DNA from: an uncultured Pseudomonadota bacterium
GTDB taxonomy: Bacteria > Pseudomonadota > Alphaproteobacteria > Acetobacterales > Acetobacteraceae
NCBI GenBank assembly: GCA_963736975.1
Contig: CAVTQY010000002.1
Span: 364,949 to 428,948, forward strand
Direction of reading: 5' to 3'
DNA: 64,000 nt
A program made the position numbers and the translations under genes. Below the pieces are notes generated by a model. That model did not search any database, was not told the origin of the DNA, and saw only the letters and a program-made list of their open reading frames with translations. This document shows, one piece after another, positions 2,403 through 52,797 of this stretch (the first letter of the stretch is position 1; each line of letters begins with the position of its first letter).

Positions 2403-2453
2403 CCACGGCGCTGGAGTGTCCCGCGGACCCGGTCTAGCTTTGCCTTCTGCCTT

Positions 2454-2556
2454 AGAGCATGATCGCTTCTGGTAGGGCGAAGCGATCATGCTCTGACTCA
2501 CTGTTTGAGAGCGATTCACGCTTTCCGACGTGGCCGCCTCAAGCGGTCACGCTCTA
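2454..2556. repeat. Two-module REP-like intergenic element, copy 1
   Basis: Module A is a perfect 16-bp stem, AGAGCATGATCGCTTC (2454-2469) / GAAGCGATCATGCTCT (2479-2494). Module B (2508-2556) is an inverted repeat, AGAGCG..ATTCACGC...GCGGTCACGCTCT. The same element recurs at 51870-51971, and module B alone at 7527-7576. Confidence 0.85.
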
Positions 2557-2561
2557 AGGAG

Positions 2562-3035
2562 ATGGCGATGGCCAGCCTGATCGACGCGAAACTGGCGGAA
2601 CTCGGCATCACCATTCCCGCCCCCATGGCACCCGTCGCCAATTACGTTCCATACGTCGTGACTGGCCGACTGGTGATGGTTTCGGGCCAGGTGCCGGCAG
2701 TCGATGGGAAAATCACGGTCACCGGCAAGCTTGGCGGTACGGTTTCCATCGAGCAGGGCCAGCAGGCGGCCCAGCGTTGCTTCATCAACGTGCTCGCCCA
2801 CCTGAAGACCGCTTGCGACGGTCGGCTCGACCGGGTGCGCCGGGTCGTTCGGCTCGGCGGCTTCATCGCCTGCACGCCGGAGTTCGACCAACAGGCGCGC
2901 GTCATGAACGGTGCCTCGGATTTAGCAGTGGCGGTGTTCGGCGAAGCCGGCCGGCATGCCCGGACTACTATCGGTGTCGCCGCCTTGCCGCTCGATGTCC
3001 CGGTCGAGGTGGAGGGTCTTTTTGAAATCGATTGA
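2562..3035 (+). CDS. ridA: RidA/YjgF-family reactive-intermediate deaminase
   Basis: ORF 2505..3035, internal ATG 2562 preceded by AAGGAG. Sequence MAMASLIDAKLAELGITIPAP...VVTGRLVMVSGQ...RTTIGVAALPLDVPVEVEGLFEID is typical of YjgF/RidA. Confidence 0.85.
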   Translation: MAMASLIDAKLAELGITIPAPMAPVANYVPYVVTGRLVMVSGQVPAVDGKITVTGKLGGTVSIEQGQQAAQRCFINVLAHLKTACDGRLDRVRRVVRLGGFIACTPEFDQQARVMNGASDLAVAVFGEAGRHARTTIGVAALPLDVPVEVEGLFEID

Positions 3036-6872: not shown

Positions 6873-7525
6873 AGGGCGGCCAGTGCCGGTGCCACGTCGG
6901 CCGGTTTGGGCAATGCGTCAGGTATCTCGCCGGGATAGGCAGTGCGTCGCAGCCGCGTGGCCACCGGCCCCGGATCGAACAGGTTGACCCGCAGCCGGCT
7001 GTTGGCGACCTCGTCGGCCCAGGTCAACACGAGGTGCTCCAGCGCCGCTTTGCTGGCGCCGTATGCACCCCAATAGGCTTTCGGTGCGCGCGCCCGCGCC
7101 ACGGTTACAAACACCGCTCGCCCGGCTGGCGCAGCCCGCAACAGCGCATCGCAACTCCAAATCAGGCGCCATGCGGCGGTCGTGTTCACGGCCATTGCAT
7201 CGGCCCATTCCTCGGCGGTGAGATGCGCCACCGGCGTCACCCGCCCGAGTGATCCGGCGCCGTGCACTAAAACATCCAGCCGTTGGAAGCGCTGATACAG
7301 GCTCGGGCCGATCGCATCGAGTTGCTCGGCTTGGTGCAGATCGACGGGCAGCAGCGTCGCGGACCCGCCGGCCGCGCGGATCGCATCGTCGGTCTCTTCC
7401 AGCCCGCCGGGCGTACGTGCGGTTATCACCACATGGGCGCCCAGACGGGCGAGCTCGATCGCCGCGGCGGCCCCGATCCCGCGGCTCGCCCCGGTGACCA
7501 GTGCCACACTGCCCTTAAGCCGCAT
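6827..7525 (-). CDS. SDR-family oxidoreductase
   Basis: ORF 6827..7540, start taken at M6 (7525). MRLKGSVALVTGASRGIGAAAAIELARLGAHVVITAR contains the TGxxxGxG Rossmann motif, and ...YGASKAALEHL contains YxxxK. Confidence 0.8.
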   Translation of the reverse strand: MRLKGSVALVTGASRGIGAAAAIELARLGAHVVITARTPGGLEETDDAIRAAGGSATLLPVDLHQAEQLDAIGPSLYQRFQRLDVLVHGAGSLGRVTPVAHLTAEEWADAMAVNTTAAWRLIWSCDALLRAAPAGRAVFVTVARARAPKAYWGAYGASKAALEHLVLTWADEVANSRLRVNLFDPGPVATRLRRTAYPGEIPDALPKPADVAPALAALCLPEETRHGTLVTR

Positions 7526-7526
7526 G

Positions 7527-7576
7527 AGAGCGTGATGCACGCTTTCCGACGTATCCGCCTCCAGCGATCACGCTCT
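7527..7576. repeat. REP-like element, module B only, copy 2
   Basis: AGAGCGTGATGCACGCTTTCCGACGTATCCGCCTCCAGCGATCACGCTCT. It fills the purF-SDR spacer, overlaps the purF stop (7575-7577) and ends 1 nt from the SDR start codon (7525-7523). Confidence 0.85.
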
Positions 7577-9074
7577 AATGCGAGTCGAGGAGGCTGAGCT
7601 GGCGCTCGACGTTGTCGCCCTGATCGGGCCGGGGAATCGGATAATCGCCGGTGAAACAAGCGTCGCAGTAATAGGGCCGCACCGGGTCGCGATCCTGCTT
7701 GCCGAGCGCGCGGTAGAGGCCGTCGAGCGAGATGAACGCCAGGCTGTCCGCGCCGATCTGCTCGGCCATTTCGTCGAGGGAGTAGCACGCCGCCAGCAGC
7801 TGGCCGCGCTCTGGGGTATCGATGCCGTAGAAGCAGGAATGCGTGGTGGGCGGCGAGGAGATGCGCATGTGCACCTCGCCGGCTCCCGCCTGGCGAACCA
7901 TCTCGACGATCTTGCGGCTGGTGGTGCCGCGCACGATCGAATCATCTACCAGCACGACGCGGCGGCCTTCGAGGATGGCGCGATTGGCGGAATGCTTGAG
8001 CTTCACGCCGAGGTTACGGATGTGCTCGGTCGGCTCGATAAAGGTGCGGCCGACATAATGGTTGCGGATGATGCCCAGCTCGAAAGGAATGCCGCTTTCC
8101 ACCGCATAACCCATGGCCGCCGGCACGCCGGAATCGGGCACCGGCACGATCACGTCGGCCGGCACGCCTGACTCGCGGGCCAGCTCCGCGCCGATGCGTT
8201 TGCGCGCATCGTAAACCGGCATGCCCTCCATCACGGAGTCCGGGCGGGCAAAGTAGATATATTCGAACACGCAGAACCGCTCGCGAGCCCGGGTGAACGG
8301 CTTGATGCTACGCACGCCCTGATCGTTGATCACCACGACCTCGCCGGGCTCCACGTCGCGCACGAACTCGGCGCCGACGATGTCGAGCGCGCAACTCTCG
8401 CTGGCCAGCACCCAACCGCCGGTGCCCTCGGAGCCGATCCGTCCCCCGTCGGCGGAGCCGACGATACGGCCAAGAATAAGCGGGCGGACGCCCAGCGGAT
8501 CGCGCACGCCCAGCAGCGCTTCATTGGATAGCGCGACCAGCGAATAGGCGCCGACCACCTGCTTGATCGCGTCGATCAGCCGGTCCGCGACCGTGGAATA
8601 AAGGCTGATCGCGATCAGGTGGATGAACACCTCGGAATCGGTGGTGGACTGAAACAGGCAGCCGCGCCGCACCAGGGACCGGCGCAGGATATGCGCGTTG
8701 GTCAGGTTGCCGTTATGTGCCACCGCGAGGCCGCCGAACTCGAAATCGGCGTAGAGCGGCTGCACGTTGCGCAGGACCGTCGCGCCGGTCGTCGCATAAC
8801 GGTTGTGGCCGATCGCGGACTGCCCCGGCAGGGAGGCGATCACCCGTGCATCGCCGAAATTGTCGCCGACCAGTCCCATGCCTTTGTGCGAGTGGAACCG
8901 CGCCCCGTCGAAACTGACGATCCCGCTCGCCTCCTGCCCGCGGTGCTGCAGGGCGTGCAGACCGAGTGCGGTCACTGCCGCCGCATCGGGCACGCTCCAG
9001 ATGCCGAAGACGCCGCACTCCTCGTGCGGCTTGTCATCGGTCAAATCGTCCGGTTCAGGCGACGCGGGTGGCAT
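7575..9074 (-). CDS. purF: Amidophosphoribosyltransferase
   Basis: ORF 7575..9221, start taken at M50 (9074, GGAGAG upstream). HEECGVFGIW...LQHRGQEASGIV...AIGHNRYATTG...DSGVPAAMGYA...VVLVDDSIVRGTTSRKIV. Confidence 0.95.
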   Translation of the reverse strand: MPPASPEPDDLTDDKPHEECGVFGIWSVPDAAAVTALGLHALQHRGQEASGIVSFDGARFHSHKGMGLVGDNFGDARVIASLPGQSAIGHNRYATTGATVLRNVQPLYADFEFGGLAVAHNGNLTNAHILRRSLVRRGCLFQSTTDSEVFIHLIAISLYSTVADRLIDAIKQVVGAYSLVALSNEALLGVRDPLGVRPLILGRIVGSADGGRIGSEGTGGWVLASESCALDIVGAEFVRDVEPGEVVVINDQGVRSIKPFTRARERFCVFEYIYFARPDSVMEGMPVYDARKRIGAELARESGVPADVIVPVPDSGVPAAMGYAVESGIPFELGIIRNHYVGRTFIEPTEHIRNLGVKLKHSANRAILEGRRVVLVDDSIVRGTTSRKIVEMVRQAGAGEVHMRISSPPTTHSCFYGIDTPERGQLLAACYSLDEMAEQIGADSLAFISLDGLYRALGKQDRDPVRPYYCDACFTGDYPIPRPDQGDNVERQLSLLDSH

Positions 9075-26769: not shown

Positions 26770-26846
26770 GGACCCGTAGCTCAGTTGGATAGAGCGTCGC
26801 CCTCCGAAGGCGAAGGTCGCACGTTCGAGTCGTGTCGGGTCCGCCA
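26770..26846 (+). tRNA. tRNA-Arg (anticodon CCG)
   Basis: Hand-folded cloverleaf: GGACCCG-TA-GCTC-AGTTGGATA-GAGC-G-TCGCC-CTCCGAA-GGCGA-AGGTC-GCACG-TTCGAGT-CGTGT-CGGGTCC-G-CCA. 77 nt with an encoded CCA. Confidence 0.9.
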
Positions 26847-36387: not shown

Positions 36388-36463
36388 TGGCTCCCGGAGT
36401 AGGACTCGAACCTACGACCCAGCGGTTAACAGCCGCTTGCTCTACCGACTGAGCTATCCGGGA
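36388..36463 (-). tRNA. tRNA-Asn (anticodon GTT)
   Basis: The reverse complement folds as TCCCGGA-TA-GCTC-AGTCGGTA-GAGC-A-AGCGG-CTGTTAA-CCGCT-GGGTC-GTAGG-TTCGAGT-CCTAC-TCCGGGA-G-CCA. 76 nt. Confidence 0.9.
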
Positions 36464-36992: not shown

Positions 36993-37960
36993 GTGGGGAA
37001 GGGCGCCTGCGGGTCGGCATCCAGGCGATTCACCGGCAGGCCGAGCCTTCCAGCCTACCATGGCGGCCGGCGATTGATGAGCTGGTAGCGCTGGTCGAGC
37101 TGGTCGATCGGTCAGGCTACGACTTGCTGTGGGTCGGTGACCATGTGTCCTTCGCCGTGCCCATGCTCGATCCGTTGCTGCAGTTGGCGCAGGCGGCCGT
37201 GGTCAGCCGGCGGCTGACCCTGGGCACCGCGGTCTATCTGCTGCCGCTGCGGCATCCGGCGCCGGTGGCGAAACAGGTGTCGACGCTCGACCACCTGACC
37301 GAAGGACGGCTGATCTTCGGGGTGGGGGTGGGCGGGGAGTTTCCGCAGGAATATGCGGCGTGCGGCGTTCCGCTGCAGGAGCGGGGCGCCCGTCTGACCG
37401 AGGCGCTCGGGCTGTTGCGGCGGTTCTGGAGCGGCGAGCCGGTGAGCCATGCCGGGCGGTTTTACGGCCCGTTCAGCGATGTGAGCATGCAGCCGCCGGC
37501 GCGGCAGCCCGGTGGACCGCCGATCTGGCTGGGCGGCCGCTCCGAGGCGGCGCTTCGACGTGCGGGGCGGATGGGCGACGGCTATCTGTCGTATGTGGTT
37601 ACGCCTGAGATGTACGGGGCTGCGCTCGGCACGATCTGGACCGAGGCGGAAGCGGTCGGGCGCAGCCTGGACGGGTTCGGCACCGGGCACCTGCTGTTCA
37701 CGCGGCTGGATGCAACCTATGAGGCCGCGCTGGACGCGGCGACCGCCACGCTTTCGGTCCGCTACGCGATGGATTTTCGTCGGGCGGCGGAGCGGTACTG
37801 CGCGCTTGGCCCTCCGGCTGCCGTGGCGGAACGCATCCGTGCTTTCCATGCCGCCGGGGTGCGGCATGTGATCCTGGACTTGCTCGGGCCGTATCAGGAG
37901 CGCGAGCGGCAGGTCGCCTGGTTCGCCGCCGAGGTGATGCCGCTGCTTCAGGACCTGTAG
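36989..37960 (+). CDS. LLM-class (luciferase-like) flavin-dependent oxidoreductase
   Basis: ORF 36824..37960. ATG 36989 overlaps the upstream stop (ATGA). LLWVGDHVSF...LTLGTAVYLLPLRHPAPVAKQVSTLDHLTEGRLIFGVGVGGE. Confidence 0.8.
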   Translation: MSGEGRLRVGIQAIHRQAEPSSLPWRPAIDELVALVELVDRSGYDLLWVGDHVSFAVPMLDPLLQLAQAAVVSRRLTLGTAVYLLPLRHPAPVAKQVSTLDHLTEGRLIFGVGVGGEFPQEYAACGVPLQERGARLTEALGLLRRFWSGEPVSHAGRFYGPFSDVSMQPPARQPGGPPIWLGGRSEAALRRAGRMGDGYLSYVVTPEMYGAALGTIWTEAEAVGRSLDGFGTGHLLFTRLDATYEAALDAATATLSVRYAMDFRRAAERYCALGPPAAVAERIRAFHAAGVRHVILDLLGPYQERERQVAWFAAEVMPLLQDL

Positions 37961-50950: not shown

Positions 50951-51871
50951 ATGAAGCAGCTCTTGGCTGTGGCAGCGCTCGCGGCCTTGTTGAGCGCTGG
51001 TCCGATCGGTCAGGCGGGCGCCGAAATATCGGGGATGATCAACGCCGTCGGCGTGGAAAACGAATATGCCGACGTTATCGCGCAAATTGGCGGCAAGTAT
51101 GTGCAGATGACGGCGATTGAAACAGATCCCAACACCGATCCGCATACGTTCGAGGCCAGCCCGAAAGTCGCGGCACAGATCGCCTCCGCTGAGCTGATCG
51201 TGAAGAACGGAGTCGGCTACGACTCATGGGCAGACAAAATCATATCGGCTGCGCCAAAGGCCGATCGCAAAGTTATTGATGTCCAACAGTTGCTGGGAAT
51301 GCCCGACAGCACCCCGAACCCGCATCTGTGGTATGATCCGAAGACGATGCCGACCCTCGCGAAGGCCATCGCGGCCGACCTCTCCGCCCTGCAGCCGGTA
51401 AACGCCGCGTATTTCCAGGCGAACATGCAAAAATTCAACTCCTCGCTCCAACCCTGGACGGCGGCGATCGCATCCTTCAAAACGCAGTACGGGAACACAC
51501 TGATCGCGGTGACCGAGCCGGTCGCCGACTACCTGCTGGCGGCCATGGGGTTCAACATAGCCACCCCCTTGGGCCTGCAGGCCGCGATCATGAACGGCAC
51601 GGACCCTTCTCCTCAGGATGTCACGACACAGAACGACCTGTTCAAAAACCACAAGGTGAAGGTGTTCGCCTATAACCAGCAGGTCACAGATACCTTGACT
51701 CAGTCTTTCCTCGATCTGGCGAAGAAGAACGGGGTTCCGGTTGTCGGCGTGTATGAGACGATGCCGACGCCCGGCTACAACTACCAATCGTGGATGATGG
51801 CGGAGGTCGCCGCTCTTCGGAAGGCCGTCGCTGAAAAGGTGTCCACCGTGACGCTTGAGGCGGGACACTAG
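50951..51871 (+). CDS. Metal (Zn/Mn) ABC transporter substrate-binding protein, TroA/ZnuA family
   Basis: Signal MKQLLAVAALAALLSAGPIGQAGA, then ...VGVENEYADVIAQIGG..., DPHTFEASP, NPHLWYDP. Confidence 0.85.
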   Translation: MKQLLAVAALAALLSAGPIGQAGAEISGMINAVGVENEYADVIAQIGGKYVQMTAIETDPNTDPHTFEASPKVAAQIASAELIVKNGVGYDSWADKIISAAPKADRKVIDVQQLLGMPDSTPNPHLWYDPKTMPTLAKAIAADLSALQPVNAAYFQANMQKFNSSLQPWTAAIASFKTQYGNTLIAVTEPVADYLLAAMGFNIATPLGLQAAIMNGTDPSPQDVTTQNDLFKNHKVKVFAYNQQVTDTLTQSFLDLAKKNGVPVVGVYETMPTPGYNYQSWMMAEVAALRKAVAEKVSTVTLEAGH

Positions 51872-51971
51872 AGCATGATCGCTTCTGGCAGGCGAAGCGA
51901 TGATGCTCTAGCTCTTTGTTTAGAGCGTGATTCACGCGTTCCGACGTGTCCGCCTCAAGCGATCACGCTCT
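51870..51971. repeat. Two-module REP-like intergenic element, copy 3
   Basis: Module A is AGAGCATGATCGCTTC (51870-51885) / GAAGCGATGATGCTCT (51894-51909). Module B is AGAGCGTGATTCACGCGTTCCGACGTGTCCGCCTCAAGCGATCACGCTCT (51922-51971). It starts inside the stop codon of the SBP gene and ends 1 nt before ATG 51973. Confidence 0.85.
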
Positions 51972-51972
51972 A

Positions 51973-52797
51973 ATGCCCACGGGCGCCGGGAGCGAGGTCC
52001 TCGCTGTCCGTCAGGTGAGCGTCTCGCTTTCCGGACGCAGGATTCTACAGGACATGAATTTCGCGTTGGAGCCGGGCGAGTTCTGCGGTCTTATCGGCGC
52101 CAATGGATCGGGAAAAACGACGCTGCTGCGGACCATCCTTGGCTTCATCAAGCCCAGCCGCGGCAGCATCGCAATCGGGAGTGGCAGGCCGGCCTCGGTC
52201 GGCTACGTGCCGCAGAAGTTTACCCTCGATCCCTACATGCCGATGCGCGCGCGAGATCTTGTGGCACTCGGGTTCGATGGTCACCGGCTTGGCATTCCGC
52301 TTCCGTCGAGAGAGCGTGGGCGGAAGGTGGACGAGATGCTGGCTGCGGTCGAAGCGGCGGATTTCGCCGACCAGCGCATCGGGGCTTTATCCGGTGGGCA
52401 GCAACAGCGGGTGCTGATTGCGCACGCGCTGATCCGGCGTCCGCGCCTGCTTCTGTTGGACGAACCACTCGCCAACCTGGATATAAGAAGCATCGCCGCG
52501 ATCGTTGCGCTCTTGCGGCGCGTTTCCAGCGACTATCGGGTGACCGTCCTGCTCTCCGCCCATGACATGAACCCGCTGCTCGCGGCCATGGACCGGATCA
52601 TCTATCTGGCCAATGGGCGGGCTGCGAGCGGTCCTACCGACGACGTGGTTCGCACTGAGGTGCTGAGCAAGTTGTTCGGCTACCATATCGACGTCATCCG
52701 GGTTCATGGCCGGATCCTGGTGATCGCCGCCGACGCAGAGGACAGCATAGAAGCTGCGGTCGAGCGGCACCCCGAGCACGTGGCCCAGGTTCCATGA
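51973..52797 (+). CDS. Metal ABC transporter ATP-binding protein (TroB/ZnuC-like)
   Basis: ORF 51946..52797, ATG at M10. Walker A GANGSGKTTLL, signature LSGGQQQRV, Walker B LLLLDEP. Confidence 0.85.
   Translation: MPTGAGSEVLAVRQVSVSLSGRRILQDMNFALEPGEFCGLIGANGSGKTTLLRTILGFIKPSRGSIAIGSGRPASVGYVPQKFTLDPYMPMRARDLVALGFDGHRLGIPLPSRERGRKVDEMLAAVEAADFADQRIGALSGGQQQRVLIAHALIRRPRLLLLDEPLANLDIRSIAAIVALLRRVSSDYRVTVLLSAHDMNPLLAAMDRIIYLANGRAASGPTDDVVRTEVLSKLFGYHIDVIRVHGRILVIAADAEDSIEAAVERHPEHVAQVP

Follow-up and report, generated by a model that had tools for sequence, protein, structure and literature searches.

What brings a palindromic repeat to lie flush against a stop codon at one end and a start codon at the other? 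The question is raised by a 64-kb stretch of Acetobacteraceae DNA (hereafter the window, meaning this stretch at its full length), in which a repeat made of two hairpin modules, A and B, joined by a linker, occurs at three gene boundaries: upstream of ridA, between purF and a short-chain dehydrogenase/reductase (SDR) gene, and between znuA, which encodes the substrate-binding protein of an ABC transporter, and the ATPase gene znuC. An initial annotation, made from the letters of the window, placed the start codon of the downstream gene within 1-6 nt of the element in all three copies, and suggested that the element either targets stop/start junctions or has been co-opted to control mRNA processing and translation initiation. 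[quoted passage not shown]

Copies of the repeat and their gene boundaries

The core of module B (CACGCNTTCCGACGTNNCCGCCTCNAGCG) has exactly three matches in the window (2517-2545, 7538-7566 and 51933-51961), all on the + strand, where shuffled sequences lead one to expect none. This bears out the three copies first described, two of them with both modules (2454-2556 and 51870-51971, copies 1 and 3) and one with module B only (7527-7576, copy 2). The 16-bp stem ascribed to module A is likewise present: its arms (AGAGCATGATCGCTTC/GAAGCGATCATGCTCT) pair at 16 of 16 positions in copy 1 and with one mismatch in copy 3. RNA folds of the window copies range from -46 to -54 kcal/mol, with z-scores of -3.9 to -6.2 relative to shuffled sequence. 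The two termini form terminal inverted repeats (TIRs): AGAGCATGATCGCTTC and CAAGCGATCACGCTCT, once the latter is reverse-complemented, agree at 14 of 16 positions. Pfam profiles found in the window proteins (RidA/YjgF, adh_short, ABC_tran and ZnuA) agree with the ridA, SDR and ABC ATPase assignments, and purF was identified by its homologues.

At copy 3 the left TA together with the first G of the element forms the znuA stop codon (TAG, 51869-51871), and the right TA directly precedes the ATPase ATG (51973-51975), which thus begins 1 nt past ...GCTCT. At copy 2 the SDR start lies 1 nt from the AGAGC end, and the purF stop overlaps the element at the other end, as had been noted. The claim of a start within 1-6 nt therefore stands for these two copies and fails for the first, where ATG 2562 had been taken as the ridA start. 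RidA homologues, including a 100%-identical protein from the source genome, are 155 aa long, and the ridA start is accordingly ATG 2568, 12 nt from the element, preceded at ideal spacing by a free, unpaired AAGGAG. The site of copy 1 is a TTAA located just 5' of this Shine-Dalgarno (SD) sequence.

Empty sites in relatives and interruption of a gene

In close relatives (81-91% protein identity), none of the three sites is occupied. The purF products of the window and of the relative at locus L083 both end in ...LLDSH*, and the element follows in the window only; in the relatives purF and the SDR gene overlap, by TGATG in L083 and by GTGA in L081. In four relatives (L085-L088) the znuA/znuC junction consists of the stop, 5 nt and the ATPase start, and the distance from the znuA stop to a conserved GCCGGGAG is 11 nt; after subtraction of 102 nt the same distance in the window is exactly 11 nt. 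The window ZnuA has 306 aa, as do the ten homologues that match it best (78-100% identity) and the majority of the other close ones, and the junction reconstructed without copy 3 reads CAC-TAATG-CCC. Upstream of ridA, the spacer that follows the TSCPD gene measures 165 nt in the window and 65 nt in a relative (L123).

The Acetobacteraceae metagenome-assembled genome (MAG) CP_BE_BS_16 provides 25 full-length copies with a mean pairwise identity of 98.4%, compared with 88% between copies 1 and 3 of the window. In one locus of this MAG (L047, 316-1929), two copies in the same orientation cut the gene for a type I restriction R subunit (hsdR; HSDR_N and ResIII domains) in three. The pieces carry HSDR_N, positions 4-112 of the ResIII profile and positions 122-164 of the same profile, the last two lying on either side of the second insertion, which took place in a CTAG site (CCC-TA-GCT). 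In each copy the reading frame stops at the TAG that closes module A.

Target site and position relative to genes

The collection of copies required an exact match to a conserved core and therefore misses diverged ones, and gene contexts were taken from a simple gene caller based on codon bias (codon log-odds) that was written for this analysis and is crude. The MAG is fragmented, and the survey covers the loci around repeats.

The flanks of the element almost always read Y-TA, then GAGC...GCTC, then TA-R. Immediately before the left TA stands C (21 copies) or T (3), and immediately after the right TA stands G (17) or A (8), never C or T, from which it follows that the target is Y-TA-R, a two-fold symmetric sequence. 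The window contains 66 YTAR sites, of which 35 are in coding sequence, 24 are intergenic and 7 are in stop codons; in this genome of 65% GC, stop codons thus account for roughly one in four of the YTAR sites that lie outside coding sequence in the window. If most insertions in coding sequence are lost, a like share of the surviving copies would be expected in stop codons, and the positions of the copies agree with this.

Among 61 non-redundant copies from all sources, 55 flanks face a stop (the 3' end of a gene) and 33 face a start (the 5' end), and at 11 of the 55 stop-facing flanks the stop codon overlaps the end of the element (distances of -1 to -3). The smallest possible distances to a start are 0, 1 and 6 nt for the window copies; for all others they begin at 10, 11 and 19 nt. 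Most copies lie in gene tails or between convergent genes, in both orientations, and those between tandem genes have no preferred orientation (about 6 co-oriented with the genes and 5 opposite). Mapping of copies relative to starts and stops, which had been proposed as a check, with a lack of bias toward starts named as refuting, thus gives no bias toward start codons among the available copies; what bias there is favours stop codons. Adjacency to a start within 6 nt is confined to the window and is not a general feature of the element. The suggestion that the element targets stop/start junctions was right in that stops are often hit; the actual target is YTAR, and starts are adjacent incidentally. 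Copies 2 and 3 adjoin a start because the stop that they entered overlapped or nearly touched the next start.

The same data bear on the proposal that the element is a host-selected cis-regulatory RNA, its hairpins having been recruited for differential mRNA stability and for control of translation initiation at operon junctions. Such a role would suit the very stable folds, the pairing of the SDR AUG with the last purF codon in copy 2, the lack of an SD sequence upstream of the AUG in copies 2 and 3, and a module B loop that is conserved across lineages; the downstream genes, moreover, have stayed intact even though copies 1 and 3, at 88% identity, are not very recent. Against these points, the three window sites are empty in relatives, the element has no preferred orientation between tandem genes, its copies lie mainly between convergent genes or in gene tails, two of them disrupt a gene, and contact with a start is restricted to the window. 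Rfam 15 at gathering scores gave no match at the element anywhere in the window, and at E ≤ 10 the sequence around copy 3 gave only chance matches to microRNAs and L17DE. Scans for promoters (-35/-10 hexamers) and terminators (GC stem followed by a U-tract) returned zero sites at copies 1 and 3. We therefore regard regulation as a very improbable reason for the existence of the element. The analogy that had been drawn with REP hairpins in malE-malF remains a reasonable one as to effect, and does not extend to the family of the element.

Distribution and anatomy of the family

About 55 copies besides the three in the window were found in one Acetobacteraceae MAG, in other Acetobacteraceae genomes and in soil metagenomes. 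In a set of genomes limited to one per species, the module B core matched 34 loci, at least 26 of them in MAG CP_BE_BS_16; the others were in Rhodopila, in another Acetobacteraceae MAG and in a proteobacterial MAG, and 4 were chance matches in coding DNA. Scanning metagenomes with the left half of module B gave approximately 22 true loci, and a plasmid search gave one diverged copy, in Rhodovastum atsumiense. The best relatives of the window purF, ZnuA and RidA proteins are in Acetobacteraceae MAGs, and the family is so far seen only in Acetobacteraceae.

The Rhodovastum copy has two modules and lies on plasmid NZ_OW485603.1 at 37645-37715 (L122, 2440-2575), between the stop of a D-aminoacylase gene, a TAG made together with the element end, and the gene of an MFS transporter. 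It retains GATTCACGC and TTCCGCCTC, and the remaining loop sequence differs.

The full element is non-coding, 100-102 nt long, and has the same order in all lineages: TA-GAGC, hairpin A, GCTCTA(G/A), a T-rich linker of 12-13 nt, module B and TA. Module B has the consensus (G)AGAGYRYGAT-TCACGC-TTTCCGACGTnnCCGCCTCA-AGCG-ATCRYRCTCT, followed by TA. Module A varies by lineage and is always a hairpin, with the stem CATGATCGCTTC in window copies, CATGATAGCT in contigs from peat soil, CATGTTTGTTT in copies of the MAG, CGCCATCGCTTC in L068 and one of quite another sequence in L070. The two ends of the MAG copies have only about 8 nt in common, AGAGCA(T/C)G. Module B is also found alone and in tandem arrays with a period of 60 nt (L104, L119 and L056).

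These arrays are direct repeats, at 1729-2107 of L119, 3650-3844 of L104 and about 3040-3110 of L056. The L119 array comprises at least 7 units and begins right at the TGA stop of a gene for a 400-aa protein. Because an unvarying sequence (ccggtttgtcgg) separates the B stems, the arrays are not CRISPR-like, and the genes beside those of L056 and L119 are ordinary and include no transposase.

A scan of viral contigs with a generic palindrome frame was set aside, as most of its matches were an unrelated prophage palindrome having the same 10-nt arms. About 38 prophage or viral contigs (among L001-L046) carry this palindrome, AGAGCGTGAT..GACGCGGCCGCGT..GGGAAAA..ATCACGCTCT, flanked by CCCTG/CAGGG. 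Three viral contigs, L021, L023 and L044, which we take to be alphaproteobacterial, have single-hairpin elements of the form TAGAGCATGAT..CCGAAAA..TTTTCGG..ATCATGCTCTA, and L040 has one diverged B-like module. The occurrence of single-hairpin elements with the same termini hints at a wider superfamily.

Structure and conservation of module B

The fold and covariation check that had been proposed supports a conserved hairpin. In 28 distinct B modules taken together, pairing in the 10-bp outer stem amounts to 96%, with five pairs changed on both sides (six over both helices), and 0 of 500 shuffles reach the observed values. The three central pairs switch by transitions (CGT/ACG, CAC/GTG, TGT/ACA, TGC/GCA and CGC/GCG) through G.U intermediates. 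RNAalifold independently gives the same stem together with an inner helix of 4 bp, and the 19-nt loop that remains is almost invariant; it is kept across lineages and is more conserved than the covarying stem that bears it. A GATTC, which is a GANTC site, spans the end of the stem and the loop in 26 of the 28 modules and in the diverged Rhodovastum and L040 variants; copy 2 has GATGC in its place. The linkers of the MAG copies and of copy 1 hold a second GANTC site.

Selection on the element itself would most simply explain the conserved loop, which would then be a cis site that mobilisation requires. Module B could in addition be a methylation-sensitive or protein-binding site in DNA or RNA. 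That it has a function beyond that of a passive transposon end, with the related idea of translational coupling across hairpins wedged into stop/start overlaps, we think unlikely.

Probable mobilisation in trans

We consider it likely that the repeat is a non-autonomous, MITE-like element of the Acetobacteraceae that inserts into the TA of Y-TA-R and is presumably mobilised in trans by a DDE transposase of the IS630/Tc1-mariner type. The element would enter the TA of Y-TA-R, preferably in CTAG, and be left with TA on each side, through an enzyme whose type is suggested by the pattern of target and duplication. With TA scarce at 65% GC and insertions in coding sequence selected against, surviving copies would accumulate in gene tails. 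Insertion would often hit a TAA or TAG stop codon at its TA, the first G of the element then remaking a TAG stop, and if the next start overlapped or adjoined this stop, as happened at znuA/znuC and purF/SDR, the other end of the element would come to lie flush with the start codon. The conserved loop of module B would act as a cis-acting site required for mobilisation.

A TA target, a preference for CTAG and TA on both sides are together the signature of IS630/Tc1-mariner elements, and for this reason favour mobilisation by such an enzyme. The insertion sequences (ISs) of this group are like the element in being flanked by TA: according to PMC2170065 and the work cited there (Tenzen and Ohtsubo 1991), IS630-family elements insert into TA, and IS630 has a preference for CTAG. 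Unlike them, the element has no transposase gene. Most bacterial MITEs have TA at their termini, and one of them, RUP, has been attributed to IS630-Spn1 (PMC2229807).

Several results weigh against this reading. No transposase with GAGCRYGAT... ends, and no autonomous parent, was found in about 0.9 Mb around the repeats; a search of all repeat loci for TIR pairs 0.6-3 kb apart gave nothing credible; and wherever the left half of module B gave a true metagenome match, its right half lay at the normal distance, with no long form. The Rhodovastum plasmid carries three IS630-family copies, the ends of which are unrelated (...ATACCAGCC...). Of 30 full copies, about 27 have TA at either side, an arrangement that reads equally as duplication of TA or as insertion of AGAGC...GCTCT between T and A, and some flanks depart from TA altogether (TG in the L047a copy, TC in L048 and L080, and the G on the left of copy 2). 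Conservation peaks in the asymmetric interior of module B and not at the termini, an unusual feature if the element is a simple MITE, and the compensatory changes in the stems suit hairpin-recognising HUH enzymes as well as they suit symmetric binding of TIRs.

An element of REP or REPIN type would move as single-stranded DNA through a REP-associated tyrosine transposase (RAYT) or an IS200/IS605-like HUH transposase, which would recognise the hairpins and use CTAG as a cleavage tag. Both modules are indeed hairpins maintained by compensatory changes with wobble intermediates, and the three window copies all lie on one strand. REP/BIME and REPIN-RAYT systems share with the element its extragenic palindromes in gene tails and operon junctions and their arrangement in mosaics or arrays, copies of the element being mostly downstream of genes and in some cases in arrays of 60-nt period; REP termini can also supply TAG stops to flanking open reading frames (PMC3733652). 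An effect on mRNA stability, as at malE-malF, is a further possible likeness. The ends of the element, however, carry no GTAG or CGTC tag, the tetranucleotide beside a 20-40-nt palindrome by which those REPs are defined (PMC3733652): they read N-C-TA-GAGC, and the base before CTAG varies. At copy 3 the C before TA is host sequence, part of the last His codon of znuA, and is conserved in relatives, a further point against an HUH enzyme. The units are longer than REPs, and the two-fold symmetric Y-TA-R flanks fit TA duplication by a DDE enzyme, not the one-sided targeting of HUH enzymes. Neither a RAYT nor any other Y1 transposase was identified in the loci flanking the repeats, which were searched in place of whole genomes, and CGTC REPs are absent from Acetobacteraceae (PMC3733652). 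We judge movement by an HUH enzyme to be quite improbable, and mobilisation by an IS630/Tc1-mariner-type enzyme remains the reading that we prefer.

Relation to described repeats

Literature searches returned no description of this repeat family, nor of MITEs or REPs in Acetobacteraceae. The family is new; its kind, that of a bacterial MITE by mechanism and anatomy, is already known and ordinary. In size (below 300 bp), in being non-coding and in copy number per genome the element agrees with that kind. Chen et al. reportedly described in 2008 the Chunjie MITE of Geobacter uraniireducens (cited in PMC3184786), which is a different element of a different organism.

RUP of S. pneumoniae (related to IS630-Spn1), the Correia or NEMIS elements of Neisseria and the ERIC or IRU elements of enterobacteria resemble the element in being non-coding units of about 100-150 bp with inverted-repeat termini and TA at both ends, in having filled and empty sites, bursts of near-identical copies and occasional intragenic insertions, and in forming co-transcribed hairpins near or overlapping gene ends (PMC2229807). 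The element has no sequence similarity to any of them and is GC-rich where they are AT-rich. It consists of two independent hairpins and a linker in place of a single end-to-end stem, its most conserved part is the asymmetric B loop and not the termini, and its module B occurs alone or in 60-nt arrays; no cognate IS was found among the loci surveyed.

The CcrM-associated intergenic repeats (CIRs) of Caulobacter, Brucella and other alphaproteobacteria, including Bru-RS1/2, were reportedly described by Chen and Shapiro in 2003. CIRs are about 110 bp long, have two inverted-repeat arms, a linker, TA termini and a GANTC site at or partly within the loop, are conserved among alphaproteobacteria and are never intragenic, their mobility being unexplained (PMC2229807). 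The element could be a member or sister of this family, with the GANTC site at its stem-loop serving a host function linked to methylation or to a nucleoid protein, which would be compatible with its being a mobile repeat. The plan is CIR-like (an alphaproteobacterial repeat of the class of about 103-110 bp, here 100-102 nt, with two stem-loop arms, a linker and TA termini), and the GATTC at the stem/loop junction of module B and the second GANTC in the MAG and copy 1 linkers agree with it. The likeness is one of published description, and by that measure CIR (CIR1-4 and Bru-RS) is the closest published family. The element differs from CIRs in being polymorphic between relatives, in being found so far in Acetobacteraceae only, and in interrupting a gene, hsdR, where CIRs are reported never to be intragenic. 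The GATTC, moreover, is embedded in a block conserved throughout its length, which leaves nothing to mark out the methylation site, and copy 2 lacks it. A CIR affiliation with such a host function is a possibility that we hold tentatively and consider rather unlikely.

Possible effects on expression

Insertion into compact junctions may nevertheless have affected the genes concerned. In the predicted fold of the purF-SDR mRNA, the SDR AUG pairs with the last purF codon inside an extended stem of -28 kcal/mol. At copy 3 the ATPase AUG directly follows the stable B stem, and the ancestral GAGG now lies upstream of the element; neither copy 2 nor copy 3 leaves an SD sequence available upstream of the AUG. 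It is plausible that the hairpins reduce translation of znuC and of the SDR gene, or tie it to translation of the upstream gene, and znuC would be expected to be translated less than znuA. As a ribosome at the purF stop would have to open the copy 2 stem, SDR translation may be strictly dependent on that of purF. Each hairpin juxtaposes the stop and the start at its base, and coupling across 50-100 nt might proceed by termination, opening of the hairpin and re-initiation.

Coordinates and further observations in the window

Coordinates of the three copies, their parts and their immediate neighbours are collected in Table 1.

Table 1. Parts of the three window copies and adjoining gene signals, in window coordinates
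Feature	Position	Strand	Remarks
Copy 1, full two-module element	2453-2556	+	Flanking TA at 2453-2454 and 2555-2556 included; core GAGC...GCTC 2455-2554 (100 nt)
Copy 1, module A	2454-2494	+	Hairpin, perfect 16-bp stem, 9-nt loop
Copy 1, linker GACTCACTGTTTG	2495-2507	+	T-rich; holds GANTC site GACTC; compared with linkers of other lineages
Copy 1, module B	2508-2555	+	2-nt deletion in left arm; loop TTCCGACGTGGCCGCCTCA conserved
ridA SD sequence and true ridA start	2556-2570	+	AAGGAG 2556-2561; ATG 2568-2570; outside the element
Copy 2, module B only	7527-7576	+	Between purF stop and SDR start (both on the minus strand)
Copy 2, neighbours	7577-7575 (purF stop TAG); 7525-7523 (SDR ATG)	-	AG of the stop is common with the element
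Copy 3, full two-module element	51869-51972	+	Flanking TA at 51869-51870 and 51971-51972
Copy 3, module A	51870-51909	+	Hairpin, one mismatch
Copy 3, linker AGCTCTTTGTTT	51910-51921	+	
Copy 3, module B	51922-51971	+	Stem AGAGCGTGAT/ATCACGCTCT; inner helix of CGCG/AGCG type; 19-nt conserved loop
Copy 3, GANTC site GATTC	Stem-loop junction of module B (51922-51971)	+	

The inverted repeat of copy 2 reaches 5 nt into both flanks, 7521-7536 pairing with 7567-7582 (CGCATgAGAGCGTGAT and ATCACGCTCTaATGCG). The empty site reconstructed from 7521-7582, CGCAT-TA-ATGCG, is a perfect 12-nt palindrome, and the left flank is G where T would be found elsewhere (TGAGAGC), resembling the internal left ends of module B. 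Copy 2 may be a separate mobile unit or a remnant left by deletion of module A and the linker.

Between the B loop of copy 3 (GTGTCCGCCTCAAGCG, 51946-51961) and the final znuA codons (CGCTTGAGGCGGGACAC, 51853-51868) there is complementarity, perfect over 12 nt and at 16 of 17 positions if one bulge is allowed; at the znuA position relatives already have GAGGCGGG(A/G)CA(C/T) as coding sequence. About 0.1 such 12-mers are expected over the whole dataset, and the complementarity may be due to chance. The check covered all copies; in L054 and L102, 9-mers of the same B-loop segment are complementary to upstream sequence.

Module B is open in two frames of the + strand, and mechanical lists of open reading frames consequently prolong real genes through it or invent frames that start inside it. 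Spurious frames of this kind are found at 51927-52565 and 51946-52797 of the window and at 601-1299 and 1306-1929 of L047, with products such as MIHAFRRVRLKRS... and MFESTIHAFRRFRLKRS.... Elsewhere in the window, Rfam identifies a serC leader (RF00517, 43342-43394, + strand, 44 bits) and tRNAs at 26770-26843 (+) and 36391-36463 (-).

Implications

A mobile element that targets TA, in a genome in which TA is scarce, is led to stop codons and coupled junctions, and this explains the odd pattern at gene boundaries without regulation. For annotation, it means that the repeat yields stop codons, false reading frames and false start sites. The purF/SDR and znuA/znuC junctions are natural test cases in which a hairpin has been driven between a formerly overlapping, or nearly overlapping, stop and start, and from which it could be learned how much coupling survives. 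The B loop and its GANTC site offer a concrete starting point in the search for the enzyme that mobilises the element or for a host factor that binds it. If module B does have a function of its own, that function would explain its persistence across Acetobacteraceae lineages, its varied A partners and its 60-nt arrays. The finding also opens the question of whether the little-studied CIR repeats of alphaproteobacteria move in the same way.

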